DNA from: Bdellovibrionales bacterium
GTDB taxonomy: Bacteria; Bdellovibrionota; Bdellovibrionia; Bdellovibrionales; JAGQZY01
Direction of reading: 5' to 3'
Assembly (NCBI GenBank): GCA_019750295.1
Contig: JAIEOS010000012.1
Span: 22,605-86,604 of the forward strand
DNA length: 64,000 nt
The notes beneath the pieces were generated by a model. That model searched no databases, was not told the origin of the DNA, and saw only the letters and a program-made list of their open reading frames with translations. Shown here piece by piece: positions 4,358-20,384 of the stretch. A program made the translations under genes and the position numbers. Every line of letters starts with the position of its first letter. The stretch's first letter is position 1.

Positions 4358-4579
4358 AGTGCCTCCTACCGCACTCCTAAAAATCAAACTGTGCCAGGTC
4401 GGTTAGGATACCGACTCTTCAAGCCGTCGCTCTAGGCACATGGCCTTATATCGTAAATGAACCATGTTGAGCAACTGTCGGTTCCACTGTGTCCTGGGCC
4501 AAAAAATTCACAATTTTAGCGAGAGCCCAGAGTGAGTCCGAGTGGTAGAGGAGAATCCTAAAAAAAGACACCCGGGGGG

Positions 4580-5185
4580 TCACAACACAGCATCCACTCG
4601 AACTTGAGTTTGCTCAGTGAAGTGCAAGTACATCGCGGTGATCGTCGGCGATGAGTGACCTAGGATCTTCTGGACCTCGGCGAGATTGAACCCGTTGTTC
4701 AGGAGGAAGGTCGCAAAGTGATGGCGCAGGCTGTGGTAATTGATTGATCGCTTGATGTTGCATCTCAACCTCCAATAAGTGAATCTTCGCGCAACTGCAT
4801 GGCGGGTGAATGGCTTACCGTTGCGGTTCAAGAACAAGAATGACTCTGGATTCACGGATTGGTTCATCACGCCAACTTTGATTCGGATCAGTTCATCAAT
4901 GGCGGCACGACCTCGCTTACCGATTGGAATTACGCGGAGCTTGCGACCCTTGCCGATCACCTTTAAGGAGTTCTCGGCGATGTCACCGATCTTGATACTC
5001 GCAGCCTCTGAAACCCGAAGCCCGGTCAGTGAACCGATCAAGATCAAAAAGTAGTCGTTGATGAAATGGATATGCCGAGCAGTTCGTAGGGACTGGTCCA
5101 TCGATGGCTTGATCGTTTTCAAAATGAGTCTGAGTTCGGACTCGGAGAGGATCTTATCTTCGGTCAGAGCGTAATTCTGGTTCAA
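4580..5185 (-). CDS. Tyrosine recombinase/integrase (short, catalytic domain only)
   Basis: 201 aa with LTGLRVSEAASIKIGDI (Arg I), HSLRHHFAT (HxxR) and LGHSSPTITAMYLH (His and Tyr nucleophile). TTG start lies 7 nt after AAGGAGG. Confidence 0.85.
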   Translation of the reverse strand: MNQNYALTEDKILSESELRLILKTIKPSMDQSLRTARHIHFINDYFLILIGSLTGLRVSEAASIKIGDIAENSLKVIGKGRKLRVIPIGKRGRAAIDELIRIKVGVMNQSVNPESFLFLNRNGKPFTRHAVARRFTYWRLRCNIKRSINYHSLRHHFATFLLNNGFNLAEVQKILGHSSPTITAMYLHFTEQTQVRVDAVL

Positions 5186-5448
5186 TTTGAACCTCCTTGT
5201 GACCGTAGTTATCGGATCACAAGATTAGCTTCCCAACTGATAACGGGTTCGGCACCGGGCAAGATCGGACCGATTTGACCACTACCGGAACCACCACAGA
5301 AAGCACATGGTTAGAAGGATAGTTATCATTCCCCATGTTCTGGTAACTGGAATGAAGTGAACCAGCGAAATTCAATGTTCGGGCCCGACGGCGAGGGTCG
5401 CTGGCCAACGCATCAGGAGAGAGCGTTTACGCTCGAATAAATCGATGT

Positions 5449-7776: not shown

Positions 7777-8115
7777 CTACTCCTGTTTCTTTCTGCGGAG
7801 CCGCCGGGCGCTGATTTCAAAGACCCCGCTGAACATGGGGTCATCTTCGCCTTCAAACAATTCGGCGAGTGATACGTTTTGAAGATCGACCCGGCTATGA
7901 ATCCCGGTTAAAAGCCACTGGAAGTCGCAACTCAAAGCCCTACATAGTTTTTCAATTTTCAAATGATCGTGTGGGAGAGAATTACCTGAAACCCAGTCCG
8001 ACATTGTAGCCGGAGTTACCTCGGCCATCGCTGCGGCAGCCTTTTGTGAAATCCCGCGCTCCGCAAGAATCGAACTTAGATTCTTACAGAAGGGACTTTC
8101 GATTTTTTTTCTCAT
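7777..8115 (-). CDS. XRE-family HTH transcriptional regulator
   Basis: HTH segment ERGISQKAAAAMAEVTPATMSDWVSGNSLP. The likely start is ATG 8115 (MRKKIESPF); the track start is TTG 8175. Confidence 0.65.
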   Translation of the reverse strand: MRKKIESPFCKNLSSILAERGISQKAAAAMAEVTPATMSDWVSGNSLPHDHLKIEKLCRALSCDFQWLLTGIHSRVDLQNVSLAELFEGEDDPMFSGVFEISARRLRRKKQE

Positions 8116-8149
8116 GGGTTTTTGTTTTGCCAACGGCGAACTCCTCCAC

Positions 8150-8339
8150 GAATCTTCTCGGCATCTCAAAATCAACCTAGAGGTCAGTTTCGGAGAACCG
8201 AACCGATTCGCTTCTCCTAATCTTCACCGTGCCGAACCCAATAAGCACCGCTGTGAACCAACGTGAACCGTGACATTTCATCAACGCAAATTTATGATCC
8301 TCGAACTAAATTGGTTTGAACTATTGTGAGAATCTTCTC
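8150..8339. promoter_or_regulatory. Divergent promoter/operator region between two HTH genes
   Basis: The 10-mer GAATCTTCTC occurs at 8150-8159 and 8330-8339. GTGAACC occurs at 8253-8259 and 8263-8269, in 10-bp register. Confidence 0.35.
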
Positions 8340-8348
8340 AGCGGAGAA

Positions 8349-8777
8349 ATGAAAATCGAGCTCGTTGATTTTGAATCATTCAGACAGAACTCTTATCGCG
8401 GCCGCCTTCGGCAACTTTATCTTCGCATTGATGCAACGGCACCTAGTTATGATCTCGGGACCGAAAAACGAAAGACGTTTTTTGTGACAGCTCAGGGTGA
8501 GTTCATCTCTGTTTTGCGGCTCAAACGACAAACATCCATCGAATCCGTCGCACAGTTTCTGAAAGTCTCGATCAACGATGTTGAGAAGATCGAACTTGGA
8601 GAGGCGAAGCTCGATGACCGTGACTTTTTCAGGCTATGCACCTTTTTAGGGGGCGAAGTTGAGGCTTCAGTTTTTATTGAGAAAATGGAGAAGGTGATGA
8701 CTCCCGGAATGAGAGATGCAAGACGGAGTCTTAGCAAGTCACTCCGAAGCTACGGGATTACCTTTGCCGACGAGTGA
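8349..8777 (+). CDS. HTH-domain protein (XRE-like)
   Basis: SIESVAQFLKVSINDVEKIELGEAKL is HTH-like. The likely start is ATG 8349 after GGAG; the track start is TTG 8316. It is the only plus-strand gene in the element. Confidence 0.55.
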   Translation: MKIELVDFESFRQNSYRGRLRQLYLRIDATAPSYDLGTEKRKTFFVTAQGEFISVLRLKRQTSIESVAQFLKVSINDVEKIELGEAKLDDRDFFRLCTFLGGEVEASVFIEKMEKVMTPGMRDARRSLSKSLRSYGITFADE

Positions 8778-8790
8778 CCGCCCCACAGAA

Positions 8791-9978
8791 TTAGTCCTCA
8801 AACTTCTTCACAGCTTTTTCTTCAACGGCTAGAACACCGTTCATTGGAGCATTGCGGATGTTGAAAAGGCGCGTGCGAATGTCATGTGCGCAGGCTTGAT
8901 GAAAAGAGTCGATGTGACTTCCGACGTACACGAGAAAGTTTGCGAGATCATATGCAGAAACCATTTTGATTAGATCTCGGTACGTCATATCTGAATCGAC
9001 ATGAGCGGCAAACTTGTTTCTGATTTCTCTGACTTCAGATTCCATAGTCAAATTTCTTGAATTAGCAGAAGCCAATAAAATATGGTGCCCTTTGTATTGA
9101 CCGTTCTGCCATTTGGACAAAAGACTTTCGTGTCTTGCCTCATCATATAAGTTGTCGATTAAGCTGAAAGCATCCACAACCATGAGTGACCACACGACTT
9201 CATGCAAGAGGTCAATTTTTTGAGAAAAATGAGTCAGACCCGAAAGCATATCGAGAAAATCAATAACACTCAAAATAGCCATCGCCTTTTCTTGATCCGG
9301 GTGACAGGCGAGCATACCTAAAGTATTCCCTCTGGTAAGCGCAAGAGAATCTGACGACATCGTCGGCGAAGATCCCTCTGGAACTGTTGCAGAATTAAAT
9401 TCCTGTATAACGGAGTCAATCTTGGCATGGTCGGAAGCCTGCCATTTGAATCTTAATGGTACCGATAAGATCGACATCACCTCAATCATATCGTCTACGA
9501 ATACATCAATGCTAAGAAGATCAACTGCATTCCAATTGTCGATGATCGAATCTATTGTTTCTTCTTGGCGATGCGCAGAGACCTTGTCACGTATCGACTC
9601 ATAGATCCCACGGTAATCACGATCCAGACGAGTGAACTTTTCATCGAGCTGATCTCTGATTTTTTTGTCAATGTGAGATGATTTGAAAAGAGAGTTCTTG
9701 AGCCGTCGCCCAAGTTCAATGAATGAGTCCACTTGAAGATAAACCGCTCGTGCGATTACACGTTTGTGATAGTCGCTCTTGAGGGCTGAGACCGCTCGCC
9801 GTGTTGCCTCCGCTCTACGAGCCAAATATGAAATCTTTGAAAGCAAATTGAATTCCGCAGGAGGAAGAGTTTCGACAATTGTTTTGCCTTTTGGTGGCGG
9901 GGGATTCGAATTCAAGCTGCTCTCCTTTGCGATCACACATGCATTTGTAACCTCTATGCTATCAGGATAGGAGACCAC
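8791..9978 (-). CDS. Tandem-HEPN protein (two R-x5-H motifs), putative RNase effector/toxin
   Basis: Track ORF is 8791-10068. It has YESIRDKVSAHRQEE (R160..H166, 9571-9591) and VREIRNKFAAHVDSD (R350..H356, 9001-9021). Both fit the HEPN Rx4-6H signature with a polar residue after Arg. The start is ambiguous: ATG 10068 would overlap the upstream XRE gene by 107 nt, while GTG 9976-9978 overlaps it by 17 nt. Confidence 0.6.
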   Translation of the reverse strand: MVSYPDSIEVTNACVIAKESSLNSNPPPPKGKTIVETLPPAEFNLLSKISYLARRAEATRRAVSALKSDYHKRVIARAVYLQVDSFIELGRRLKNSLFKSSHIDKKIRDQLDEKFTRLDRDYRGIYESIRDKVSAHRQEETIDSIIDNWNAVDLLSIDVFVDDMIEVMSILSVPLRFKWQASDHAKIDSVIQEFNSATVPEGSSPTMSSDSLALTRGNTLGMLACHPDQEKAMAILSVIDFLDMLSGLTHFSQKIDLLHEVVWSLMVVDAFSLIDNLYDEARHESLLSKWQNGQYKGHHILLASANSRNLTMESEVREIRNKFAAHVDSDMTYRDLIKMVSAYDLANFLVYVGSHIDSFHQACAHDIRTRLFNIRNAPMNGVLAVEEKAVKKFED

Positions 9979-10330
9979 GTGCCACCGCGAGCACCGTTTC
10001 AACTTCCTTATCTCGCATCCGTTTGAGCAGTTCCCCAATCTCCAACCTTGGGTCAGGCCGTTCAACAAAAGTATTCAACCGTTCAAAGTATGCCGTGGCC
10101 TTCACTCCGTAGGCATGGATGAGTCGCTTCAACTTCTCACCCTTGGGCACATCCATGCGCCCGGTCTCTACTTGGGCGATGTAGCTGTCAGAAACTCCAA
10201 TCAATGCGGCAGCCTTTATCATCGAAATTCCGCGCTCATGCCGAATCTGTTTCAGTAACCTCGCCGCCGGAGTCATCACGATCCGGTCACTCCGCTTTTT
10301 GGTTCGATACTTCCTCGTTCCGCTCATCAT
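9962..10330 (-). CDS. XRE-family HTH transcriptional regulator
   Basis: 122 aa. ERGISMIKAAALIGVSDSYIAQVETGRMDVP is an HTH_3 motif. It sits immediately upstream of the tandem-HEPN gene and overlaps it. Confidence 0.75.
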   Translation of the reverse strand: MMSGTRKYRTKKRSDRIVMTPAARLLKQIRHERGISMIKAAALIGVSDSYIAQVETGRMDVPKGEKLKRLIHAYGVKATAYFERLNTFVERPDPRLEIGELLKRMRDKEVETVLAVARGLLS

Positions 10331-10571
10331 TTTTTGCCTCTTAGTCAGGTTTTTTGTCTAAGTGCTTAGATACGTCCGCAGACGGCCGCTCGGCACGGCA
10401 AAACCGACCAGAAAATGGCTGCGGACACCCCTTACTAGGGTTGAGATGACCCAGGGTCGAATCATCGAGTCGCTGCTGCCACCGAAGGTAACTCGTTAAA
10501 TTTCGTGATGTTGTTTGAAAAAAGGAACCCAAACATCCGCTGCGGACATCTGGGTTCTAAAACTGGTGTAT

Positions 10572-10922
10572 TGGTGGAGGCGCCGGGAATTGAACCCGGG
10601 TCCGCAAGTGATTCACGTTAAGACAAGCTACAAGTTTAGTCGGTATTTAATGACGGCTGACAACTTCTATCGACAAACTTTGTCAGCCCTTGCACCGAAA
10701 GATTTAAAAAGTTGAGCTCGGAACAACACTCAACTCTCGATGTGGCATTAGTTATACTTCCACCAGCGTCACCACCGAACACCGATTTCAGCATCAGCTT
10801 TTAATTAAGCTGCAAAAGCGAATTGATCGCCAGATAAAACAATGCACGTTTTTAACGAGGTCCACATGCGCCCCGACTTGCTTCCTAAGCTTCACGACCC
10901 ACGTCGAAGCCAGTACGCCCCC
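10572..10922 (-). ncRNA. ssrA: tmRNA (SsrA)
   Basis: On the minus strand the 5-prime end is GGGGGCGTACTGGCTTCGACGTGGG. The 3-prime tRNA-like end is GCGGACCCGGGTTCAATTCCCGGCGCCTCCACCA. The internal tag ORF GGC GAT CAA TTC GCT TTT GCA GCT TAA (10805-10831) encodes (A)GDQFAFAA*, a typical ...A-A degradation tag. Length is 351 nt. Confidence 0.85.
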
Positions 10923-19634: not shown

Positions 19635-20384
19635 TTAGCGAGTCAATTTTTGAACGATAGAATCTTTCACTACGCCTTGTTTACCGATCTCTGATTGGTA
19701 CGTCATAGCTTCTTTTTTGTTTTTGAAGCTACCGATGCTGACGCGATACCAAGTTTTTCCGTTGATTTCGGTTTTAAACGGGAAGGCAGGGTAACCCTTT
19801 TTGATCAACGATCCGGCCATATTTTCAGCATCTTTTAAACTCTCATAAGAAGCCACTTGGACGGTGTACTCTGTCGCAGCCGCTTTCTTGGCAACACTGG
19901 AAGGAGAGCGATCGTCTTCTACTGGCATGCCGTGAGCCACTTGCTTGTGCTGAGGCGCTGCTTCGTGCTTTTCAGAGTGAGCATCGTGCTTTTCGGTAGC
20001 AGCAGCGCCGTGAGCGACTTCGTGCTTTTCAGCAGGGGCAGCGGTCTCACCGTGATGTCCTGACGCTGAAGCCACTTCGCGCTTTTCGCCATGACCTTCG
20101 CTCTCAGCATTTTCAATGGCCGATTTTGCGAGTTGCTGAATTTCCTCTTCGGAAAGTTCGCCAGATCCGGGCACTTCATCGTGCGCATCTGTATCGTCAT
20201 TCATTGCGTGAGAATATTTTTTATCAAGTGATTTGAGAGCATATTCTTTATCGCTCAAACCTTTTCCAGAAATAATTCCAACGCTAAAAGAAAGTAGAGA
20301 AACTAAAACTACTAATAGTGTAACGATCACTTTCTCTAAACGACTTTCTTTTTTCCCCGGCGTACTTGCTCCGTCTTTTTTCAT
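19635..20384 (-). CDS. SPOR-domain protein with His-rich linker
   Basis: 249 aa with an N-terminal TM segment. The C-terminal SPOR-like segment is YTVQVASYESLKDAENMAGSLIKKGYPAFPF...WYRVSIGSFKNKKEAMTYQ. Confidence 0.75.
   Translation of the reverse strand: MKKDGASTPGKKESRLEKVIVTLLVVLVSLLSFSVGIISGKGLSDKEYALKSLDKKYSHAMNDDTDAHDEVPGSGELSEEEIQQLAKSAIENAESEGHGEKREVASASGHHGETAAPAEKHEVAHGAAATEKHDAHSEKHEAAPQHKQVAHGMPVEDDRSPSSVAKKAAATEYTVQVASYESLKDAENMAGSLIKKGYPAFPFKTEINGKTWYRVSIGSFKNKKEAMTYQSEIGKQGVVKDSIVQKLTR

Follow-up and report, generated by a model that had tools for sequence, protein, structure and literature searches.

The 64,000-nucleotide stretch of Bdellovibrionales DNA analysed here (the window; contig JAIEOS010000012.1, positions 22,605 to 86,604) carries, close to the 3′ end of a transfer-messenger RNA (tmRNA) gene, a gene whose 374-residue product contains two HEPN ribonuclease (RNase) motifs in one chain. 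The gene lies on the minus strand, preceded by an XRE-family helix-turn-helix (HTH) gene in the same orientation and facing a convergent HTH-like gene, and no other cargo of the integrative island that carries it lies closer to the tmRNA end (Table 1), as had been proposed from the letters and as the position of the tmRNA and the comparison with related islands now bear out. As judged from the alignments of its homologues, the four residues that define the two HEPN catalytic dyads are exactly those that are never changed, which is the strongest single result for this locus.

Table 1. Features at the tandem-HEPN locus (positions in the window).
Feature	Position	Strand	Details and basis
Tandem-HEPN gene, 374 amino acids	8791..9915	minus	TTG start 9913-9915; TAA stop 8791-8793; translation of the reading frame
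Shine-Dalgarno sequence AAGGAG	9922..9927	minus	Six bases before the TTG start; read from the sequence, recurs in L001
One-gene cargo cassette	8778..9961	minus	46-nucleotide leader, HEPN reading frame and 13-nucleotide tail; comparison with L018
N-terminal HEPN domain, about residues 13-178	9382..9879	minus	PF18734 match at residues 84-162, E 0.0025; model helices 19-44, 48-78, 84-114 (kinked), 133-154
C-terminal HEPN domain, about residues 196-360	8836..9330	minus	PF18734 match on this half in three homologues (P0066, P0095, P0106)
HEPN motif 1, R109-D-K-V-S-A-H115 (Rx5H)	9571..9591	minus	Invariant R and H; C-terminal end of helix 104-114, then loop
HEPN motif 2, R299-N-K-F-A-A-H305 (Rx5H)	9001..9021	minus	Invariant R and H; C-terminal end of helix 289-303, then loop
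XRE-family HTH gene, 122 amino acids	9962..10330	minus	Pfam HTH_31 (E 1e-11), HTH_3 (E 1e-10), HTH_19
Convergent HTH-like backbone gene	8316..8777	plus	Weak HTH_31 match (E 0.0046); start uncertain
Palindrome TCTAAG-CA-CTTAGA, candidate operator	10357..10370	minus	Upstream of the XRE gene; kept across island copies
Terminator-like hairpin	10525..10557	minus	After the tmRNA 3′ end; 15-pair stem, then T run
tmRNA gene	10572..10922	minus	ARAGORN; Rfam RF00023, 148.9 bits; 3′ end is the island border

The open stretch of the minus strand in which the sequence-only reading had located the motifs IRDKVSAH and IRNKFAAH (8791–10068) exists, as do both motifs at the positions then given, and its 425-residue reading frame is longer than the gene. 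An identical NCBI protein from a Bdellovibrionales metagenome-assembled genome (P0001) is annotated with 374 amino acids, and we therefore place the start at the TTG codon. The homologue at a second locus, L001 (83% identical), carries the same AAGGAG-N6-TTG arrangement, and there the XRE gene ends in a TAG that is also the next in-frame codon upstream, which prevents the L001 frame from extending any further. Given this comparison and the annotated length, the 425-residue frame, together with the GTG at 9976–9978 that had been taken as the start of a gene overlapping and translationally coupled with the XRE gene, represents an open stretch rather than a gene. Indeed, the XRE stop codon is separated from the HEPN start codon by 46 nucleotides in the window and by 15 in L001, and the two genes do not overlap. 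Residue numbers used here refer to the 374-residue protein and are 51 lower than those originally assigned, such that the residues once listed as R160, H166, R350 and H356 are real, but carry the numbers R109, H115, R299 and H305.

A word-indexed search returned only seven relatives, with 50–100% identity, and when 1.84 billion cluster representatives were searched exhaustively with a profile, 263 clusters (at 50% identity) were obtained with E ≤ 1e-3, 64 of them with E ≤ 1e-30, most of the 263 comprising proteins of about 360 amino acids that match over their full length. Among 84 full-length homologues (alignment A2, mean column identity 23%), R109, H115, R299 and H305 are the only invariant positions, and the same four-residue invariance is observed in a second alignment of 119 sequences, which takes in the N-terminal 400 residues of long forms. 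The claim of two HEPN catalytic motifs in one chain, for which the sequence-only reading had proposed an alignment of this kind as a check, is thus upheld in both sets. The signature of the HEPN superfamily, Rx4–6H in which the residue following the arginine is polar (N, D or H), is found twice in the one chain: position 110 of motif 1 is D, H or N in the homologue alignments, and N300 of motif 2 is kept in 96–99% of homologues (96% in the 119-sequence alignment). On the evidence of these alignments both motifs are real, far beyond what chance would produce.

Many HEPN families additionally retain an acidic residue in helix 2 (PMC3710099), and each half has such a residue in its second long helix, namely D63 (codon 9727–9729, helix 48–78), which is D in 74% of homologues, and D248 (codon 9172–9174, helix 235–257), which is D in 89% and D or E in 98%. 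Other conserved residues are confined to one half, with R52, R56, N74 and W128 restricted to the N-terminal and D254, L280, D307 and C342 to the C-terminal half, indicating that the two halves have diverged unevenly. Forms of about 750 amino acids with an added C-terminal extension account for 35 of the 156 representatives among the matches listed (about a fifth); weak TPR matches are seen in the extension of two of the six long forms scanned, and the extension could be a sensor module.

The Pfam family PF18734 (HEPN_AbiU2) is matched by all seven close homologues (best E 1.8e-8) and by 54 of 84 diverse members of the family (best E 6e-10). These matches fall on the N-terminal half in P0088 and P0119 (34.8 bits for the latter), and on the C-terminal half in P0066 (28.8 bits, above the gathering cut-off), P0095 and P0106. 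Profiles of the two halves align with each other over 128 columns with the motifs in register (E 4.2e-5), a result that is weaker when seven sequences only are used (E 0.07). An AlphaFold2 model computed from the 84 sequences of A2 has a predicted local distance difference test (pLDDT) value of 95.4 and a predicted template-modelling (pTM) score of 0.93; it is nearly all helical by DSSP, with few residues in strand bridges, and in it both motifs lie where a helix ends and a loop follows, in agreement with the helix-3 rule for motif placement in HEPN domains (PMC3710099). A first model based on seven sequences was poor (pLDDT 70), which renders its Foldseek result meaningless. Because PF18734 matches occur on both halves, the half profiles align and the motifs are so placed in the model, we conclude that the protein is, as far as sequence and model can tell, a tandem duplication of an AbiU2-type HEPN domain. 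This domain type is already catalogued, and no description of a tandem AbiU2 architecture was found in the searchable literature.

The window family shares with AbiU2 (AbiUii) of Lactococcus lactis the HEPN subtype, the R-[D/N]-x-x-x-A-H motif and an occurrence in mobile or defence contexts, and AbiU2 is biochemically as uncharacterised as the window family. It differs in that two such domains are fused, both catalytically intact by motif, and in that no AbiU1-like gene was noticed near the window gene. Lactococcal AbiU2 is presumably roughly 340 amino acids long; if so, AbiU2 may itself be tandem, and the window family would be AbiU2 proper. The AbiU2 family was defined computationally in 2013, and Sel1-repeat genes were found in operons with AbiU2 in a survey of that year.

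The presence of two HEPN domains in one chain is also a property of Cas13 and of the compact Cas13an, and in Cas13 the two domains provide an intramolecular composite RNase site (PMC12165695). The early description of the window protein as Cas13-like therefore stands with respect to architecture, but not with respect to homology, since the domains are AbiU2-type whereas those of Cas13 and Cas13an are reported to cluster with AbiD/F, Cas13an having been proposed to be a fusion of two defence-associated HEPN genes (PMC12165695). Moreover, the motifs of the window protein are Rx5H rather than the Rx4H of Cas13, the two halves fill its 374 residues and leave no room for a CRISPR RNA-binding domain (CRISPR standing for short palindromic repeats that are clustered and regularly interspaced), and it has no Cas13 match in Pfam, PDB or PADLOC. 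As the sequence-only reading had stated, there is no CRISPR array, nor any CRISPR RNA family, in the 64-kb window, across which cas genes were not scanned as a whole. The only non-coding RNA that Rfam detects near the HEPN gene is the tmRNA, and hence there is no AbiF-like RNA partner. Judged from these comparisons, the window family is an independent duplication and not a relative of Cas13, the resemblance being architectural only. Elsewhere in the window, four imperfect direct repeats of 26 nucleotides occur at 19961–20100 with spacings of 21, 36 and 57 nucleotides; they do not form a CRISPR array and probably reflect a repetitive coding segment.

Both the arginine and the histidine of Rx4–6H are needed for HEPN RNase activity, and active HEPN sites arise at a dimer interface (PMC3710099; PMC12165695; bioRxiv 10.64898/2026.02.22.705581), the composite site of Cas13 lying within one chain (PMC3710099; PMC12165695). 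We suggest that the two halves of the window protein likewise pack as an intramolecular pseudo-dimer, in which R109 and H115 would combine with R299 and H305 into one composite, metal-independent RNase site. Alternatively, the sites could lie between chains, each domain pairing with its equivalent in a second molecule or a higher oligomer. Most HEPN proteins homodimerise and some form large oligomers, such as the DARNA dodecamer (bioRxiv 10.64898/2026.02.22.705581), and the closeness of the two motifs within the chain is inferred. However, the pTM score points to a compact body whose two domains are placed with confidence, every full-length member strictly retains both motifs together, as if each contributed half a site, and the asymmetric divergence of the halves, with R52, R56, N74 and W128 in the N-terminal half only, is typical of a fixed pseudo-dimer. 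We therefore regard an arrangement between chains as unlikely.

The genes that flank the HEPN gene also occur in related islands. Both the XRE-type HTH gene upstream (HTH_31, HTH_3) and the convergent HTH gene had been recognised from the letters and are recovered here, the latter with weak HTH matches and with 63% identity to a 115-residue gene at L018 (6366–6713). A separate set of 25 close homologue clusters belongs to the XRE protein, and homologues of 80–93% identity are located at the same island border with differing cargo downstream. At L018 the XRE gene meets the homologue of the convergent gene tail to tail and nothing lies in between, at L019–L022 the XRE gene is followed by two convergent genes unrelated to HEPN, and at L016 it is followed by an unrelated gene of 370 codons. 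The L016 gene was considered as a member of the HEPN family and, on comparison with A2 (hhalign E 0.39), rejected. The remainder of the backbone, including an HTH gene at 7777–8175 and a 201-residue integrase at 4580–5185, is common to the window and its sister islands by blastn synteny, and at L020 a complete tmRNA gene directly precedes the XRE gene in the same arrangement as in the window. Because the flanking genes abut at L018, the segment 8778–9961 can be delimited as a one-gene cassette, which, as these comparisons indicate, is an insertion with the stop codon of a backbone gene on either side, in a slot that differs from one related island to another. By the same comparisons the XRE gene belongs to the backbone that these related islands share as a family, and in two copies of the island a tmRNA gene is adjacent.

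This bears directly on the possibility that the XRE and HEPN genes form a dedicated type II toxin–antitoxin pair, in which the XRE protein would neutralise the HEPN toxin and auto-repress the operon. In both the window and L001 the two genes are neighbours in the same orientation, a short spacer apart, and between these loci the XRE proteins are 80% and the HEPN proteins 83% identical; XRE-fold antitoxins are common, and in NCBIfam the window XRE protein weakly matches antitoxins of the HipB and spr1629 types and has a 40-residue C-terminal extension beyond the HTH. Yet XRE proteins of 87–88% identity reside at the same border without the HEPN gene, followed by nothing at L018 and by unrelated genes at L016 and L019–L022, and their last 40 residues are conserved to the same degree whether or not that gene is present. 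Conversely, eight HEPN loci (L002, L003, L005, L008, L009, L011, L013 and L015) have no XRE gene immediately upstream, and the genes of the window pair do not overlap. A toxin–antitoxin pair would be conserved across homologues of either gene, whereas this pairing is seen only in the window and L001. Thus, since XRE occurs without HEPN and HEPN without an adjacent XRE, the XRE protein is most likely not a dedicated partner of the HEPN protein, contrary to the regulator or antitoxin role first assigned to it, and a toxin–antitoxin pair is quite improbable. An open reading frame of 115 codons upstream of the HEPN homologue at L002 was considered as an HTH antitoxin and rejected, as it does not have the appearance of a real HTH gene. 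Least probable, and in our view very unlikely, is that the protein is not a defence nuclease but an island modulator or RNA-binding factor, for example an AbiU2-like negative regulator or an RNA-processing factor: AbiU2 with AbiU1 reduced resistance (PMC13064643), the nuclease role of family members is read from sequence and context, and the gene sits among regulatory HTH genes of the island, but both catalytic dyads are strictly invariant, which speaks for catalysis, no AbiU1-like partner was seen at the loci examined (as judged by Pfam annotations only, not by sequence comparison with AbiU1), sister islands without the gene show that it is dispensable for the island backbone, and its distribution is scattered across phyla and tied to mobile elements.

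The explanation that we favour, with reasonable though not high confidence, is a stand-alone abortive-infection or defence HEPN RNase, built as an intramolecular pseudo-dimer and carried as a one-gene cassette, for which the XRE protein would not be a dedicated antitoxin. The enzyme would be inactive until it receives an infection cue, whereupon it would cut cellular or phage RNA, with tRNA or mRNA as the likeliest target by analogy with other HEPN defence RNases, and this cleavage would abort the infection. The XRE and HEPN genes of the window are not separated by any strong terminator or promoter signal, which makes co-transcription plausible, and the HEPN gene is probably co-transcribed with the island XRE regulator; as the second cistron it would then be transcribed from the XRE promoter, in the manner of a prophage repressor and its exclusion gene. 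In lambda, the exclusion genes rexAB are co-transcribed with the prophage repressor cI. Common to both cases is a defence gene, a putative one in the window, directly downstream of the HTH regulator of a mobile element, in a slot that is filled differently in related elements, whereas for the window both the co-transcription and the repressor role of the XRE protein are inferred. With regard to the protein itself, the sequence-only reading was right about the tandem HEPN domains and the probable abortive-infection role, which context supports as the best reading, and wrong about the overlap and probably about the XRE partner; its observation is real, and stronger than could be known from the letters.

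Several points weigh against a defence RNase of this kind. The evidence for the family consists of sequence, model and context, and the one genetic datum for lactococcal AbiU2 is that it lowers AbiU1-mediated resistance (PMC13064643). The defence-island context was judged on about ten loci and not statistically, and co-transcription with the XRE gene is deduced from gene spacing. No family for the HEPN protein or its relatives exists in PADLOC, NCBIfam or PHROGs, which agrees with the earlier view of an uncharacterised family, as does the annotation of all members seen as 'hypothetical protein', but the absence from PADLOC speaks against a known defence role. The window protein itself scores 17.7 bits against PF18734, below the gathering cut-off of 26.8 bits. 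Finally, Foldseek found no significant match for the whole chain of the confident model in PDB and BFVD, the HEPN toxin chains 8yuf and 8xdj being listed only at E 5 to 6.5, although whole-chain searches are weak for helical bundles. Single-sequence and profile searches of PDB sequences gave sub-threshold hits only (2k4v, E 0.28; the integron HEPN protein 3jrt, E 0.73). Structure prediction, which had been put forward as a check for two HEPN bundles, therefore agrees in secondary structure, but does not link the model significantly to solved HEPN folds.

Stand-alone HEPN effectors of defence islands and mobile elements are known in several forms, including ApeA, DARNA/PD-T7-3, HepS, PrrC and RloC. 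These act by abortive infection, mostly by cutting tRNA anticodon loops. They consist, however, of one dimerising or oligomerising HEPN domain with a separate sensor, whereas the short form in the window consists of two HEPN domains only, and a sensor-like extra part occurs only in the relatives of about 750 residues, as the C-terminal extension with weak TPR matches in some. The HEPN–MNT modules (HepT/MntA) and XRE-type type II toxin–antitoxin modules likewise place a HEPN RNase beside a small regulatory gene, but the antitoxin of HepT is a nucleotidyltransferase that modifies the toxin, whereas the neighbour in the window is a backbone regulator that is also found without HEPN.

More tentatively, and with rather less assurance than we attach to the defence RNase as such, we propose that the family may represent a new one-gene anti-phage system, namely a minimal, guide-independent HEPN pseudo-dimer RNase of about 360 amino acids whose origin would be a duplicated AbiU2-type domain, separate from the AbiD/F-derived fusion that has been proposed for Cas13. 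The short form would in that case sense infection with the nuclease body itself, and the relatives of about 750 residues through their C-terminal extension. If active, the protein would be among the smallest with a complete intramolecular HEPN active site, and would be suited to the study of how such a site is kept off and switched on when no guide RNA, partner or covalent modification is involved. If this origin holds true, it would be a second, independent case in which HEPN genes became fused, as has been proposed for the origin of Cas13. An unnamed family of 263 clusters, including genes on Ralstonia solanacearum megaplasmids, gains an exact map of its catalytic residues and a domain model, and the variable cargo slot in Bdellovibrionales-type islands offers a place to seek further defence genes.

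Among the eight HEPN loci without an adjacent XRE gene there is no conserved neighbour, but defence genes and integrases are found nearby. The HEPN homologue is accompanied by a large-recombinase element at L002, by a methylase, a DUF87 ATPase and an RNase H-like gene at L003, by a ScoMcrA-type HNH gene at L008, by an integrase and SIR2, one on each flank, at L009, by DUF4365 and SLFN_AlbA_2 genes at L011, by a nearby Ymh gene at L013 and by DUF3800 at L015; SIR2 and DUF87/HerA genes lie beside it at L005–L007. The distribution of the family is scattered (Bdellovibrionales, Actinomycetota, Agrobacterium and Ralstonia megaplasmids) and linked to mobile elements and defence neighbourhoods. A locus search with the close alignment A1 returned one genome locus, and none was found in viral and metagenome contigs; tblastn gave no match in phage records, and among plasmids only one Agrobacterium record and 18 Ralstonia megaplasmids.

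The Ralstonia form is exemplified by L023 5986–8256 (from the Ralstonia solanacearum megaplasmid CP022773.1), a 756-residue protein with the tandem HEPN domains and a C-terminal extension, which is present in the 18 megaplasmid records. Its gene is annotated 'hypothetical protein', and an IS1182 transposase gene is situated a few kilobases away. A sequevar-1-specific marker gene listed in a preprint codes for a HEPN-AbiU2 protein and is perhaps, but not necessarily, the gene at L023. A second tandem-HEPN paralogue, P0003 (76% identical), is encoded on another contig of the same metagenome-assembled genome as the window (locus-tag prefix K2Q26).

The region between the tmRNA and the XRE gene is shared among the islands. 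In an alignment of six island copies (A4), similarity begins at the 3′ CCACCA of the tmRNA, and about 240 nucleotides upstream of the XRE gene are conserved, including the terminator-like hairpin, which is kept in all six copies, even in those without a tmRNA gene in the retrieved stretch. Conservation is high at 10357–10430 (minus strand), between the hairpin and the XRE start. The palindrome upstream of the XRE gene is identical in four of the six copies; that of L016 differs by one base in the spacer, and in L001 both arms are changed, to TCTAC-AGAC-GTAGA, such that it is still palindromic. The sequence TGTCCGCAG at 10419–10427 has an inverted copy, CTGCGGAC, at 10374–10381 and another copy inside the hairpin, and we consider these repeats and the palindrome to be candidate operator or recombinase-binding sites.

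The window begins inside the integrative island, the left end of which was not found in the window, and the island genes include a primase/DnaB-like helicase (843–2549), several HTH genes and the integrase already mentioned, a short tyrosine recombinase. Just downstream of the integrase gene, Rfam places an int-alpA RNA motif (RF02996) at 4375–4442 on the minus strand, with 41.6 bits, above the gathering score. Close relatives of the island come from Bdellovibrionales-type assemblies, and its backbone is common to islands in other metagenomes (L016, L018, L019 and L020), in which the cargo slots vary; the islands possibly form a family of defence hotspots in Bdellovibrionales-type genomes.

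L001 contains two tmRNA 3′-end fragments (194–261 and 5351–5375), one of which precedes an island with a 404-residue integrase and AlpA and VapE-like genes, while the other is located at the border of the XRE island, which suggests two islands in tandem at one tmRNA site. The tag that ARAGORN assigns to the tmRNA of the window, ADAEIGVRW*, is unusual, the related tmRNA of L020 giving GEPNYALAA*; the resume codon of the window tmRNA may have been mis-called, or the tag may truly differ. Lastly, small proteins of 184–192 residues with matches to Peptidase_M41 (FtsH-like) recur in L019–L022, where the match is faint, and in L002. The corresponding gene occupies the cargo slot adjacent to the XRE gene in L019 (6358–7658), L021 and L022, and in L002 it lies at 9564–10142, near the tandem-HEPN homologue.

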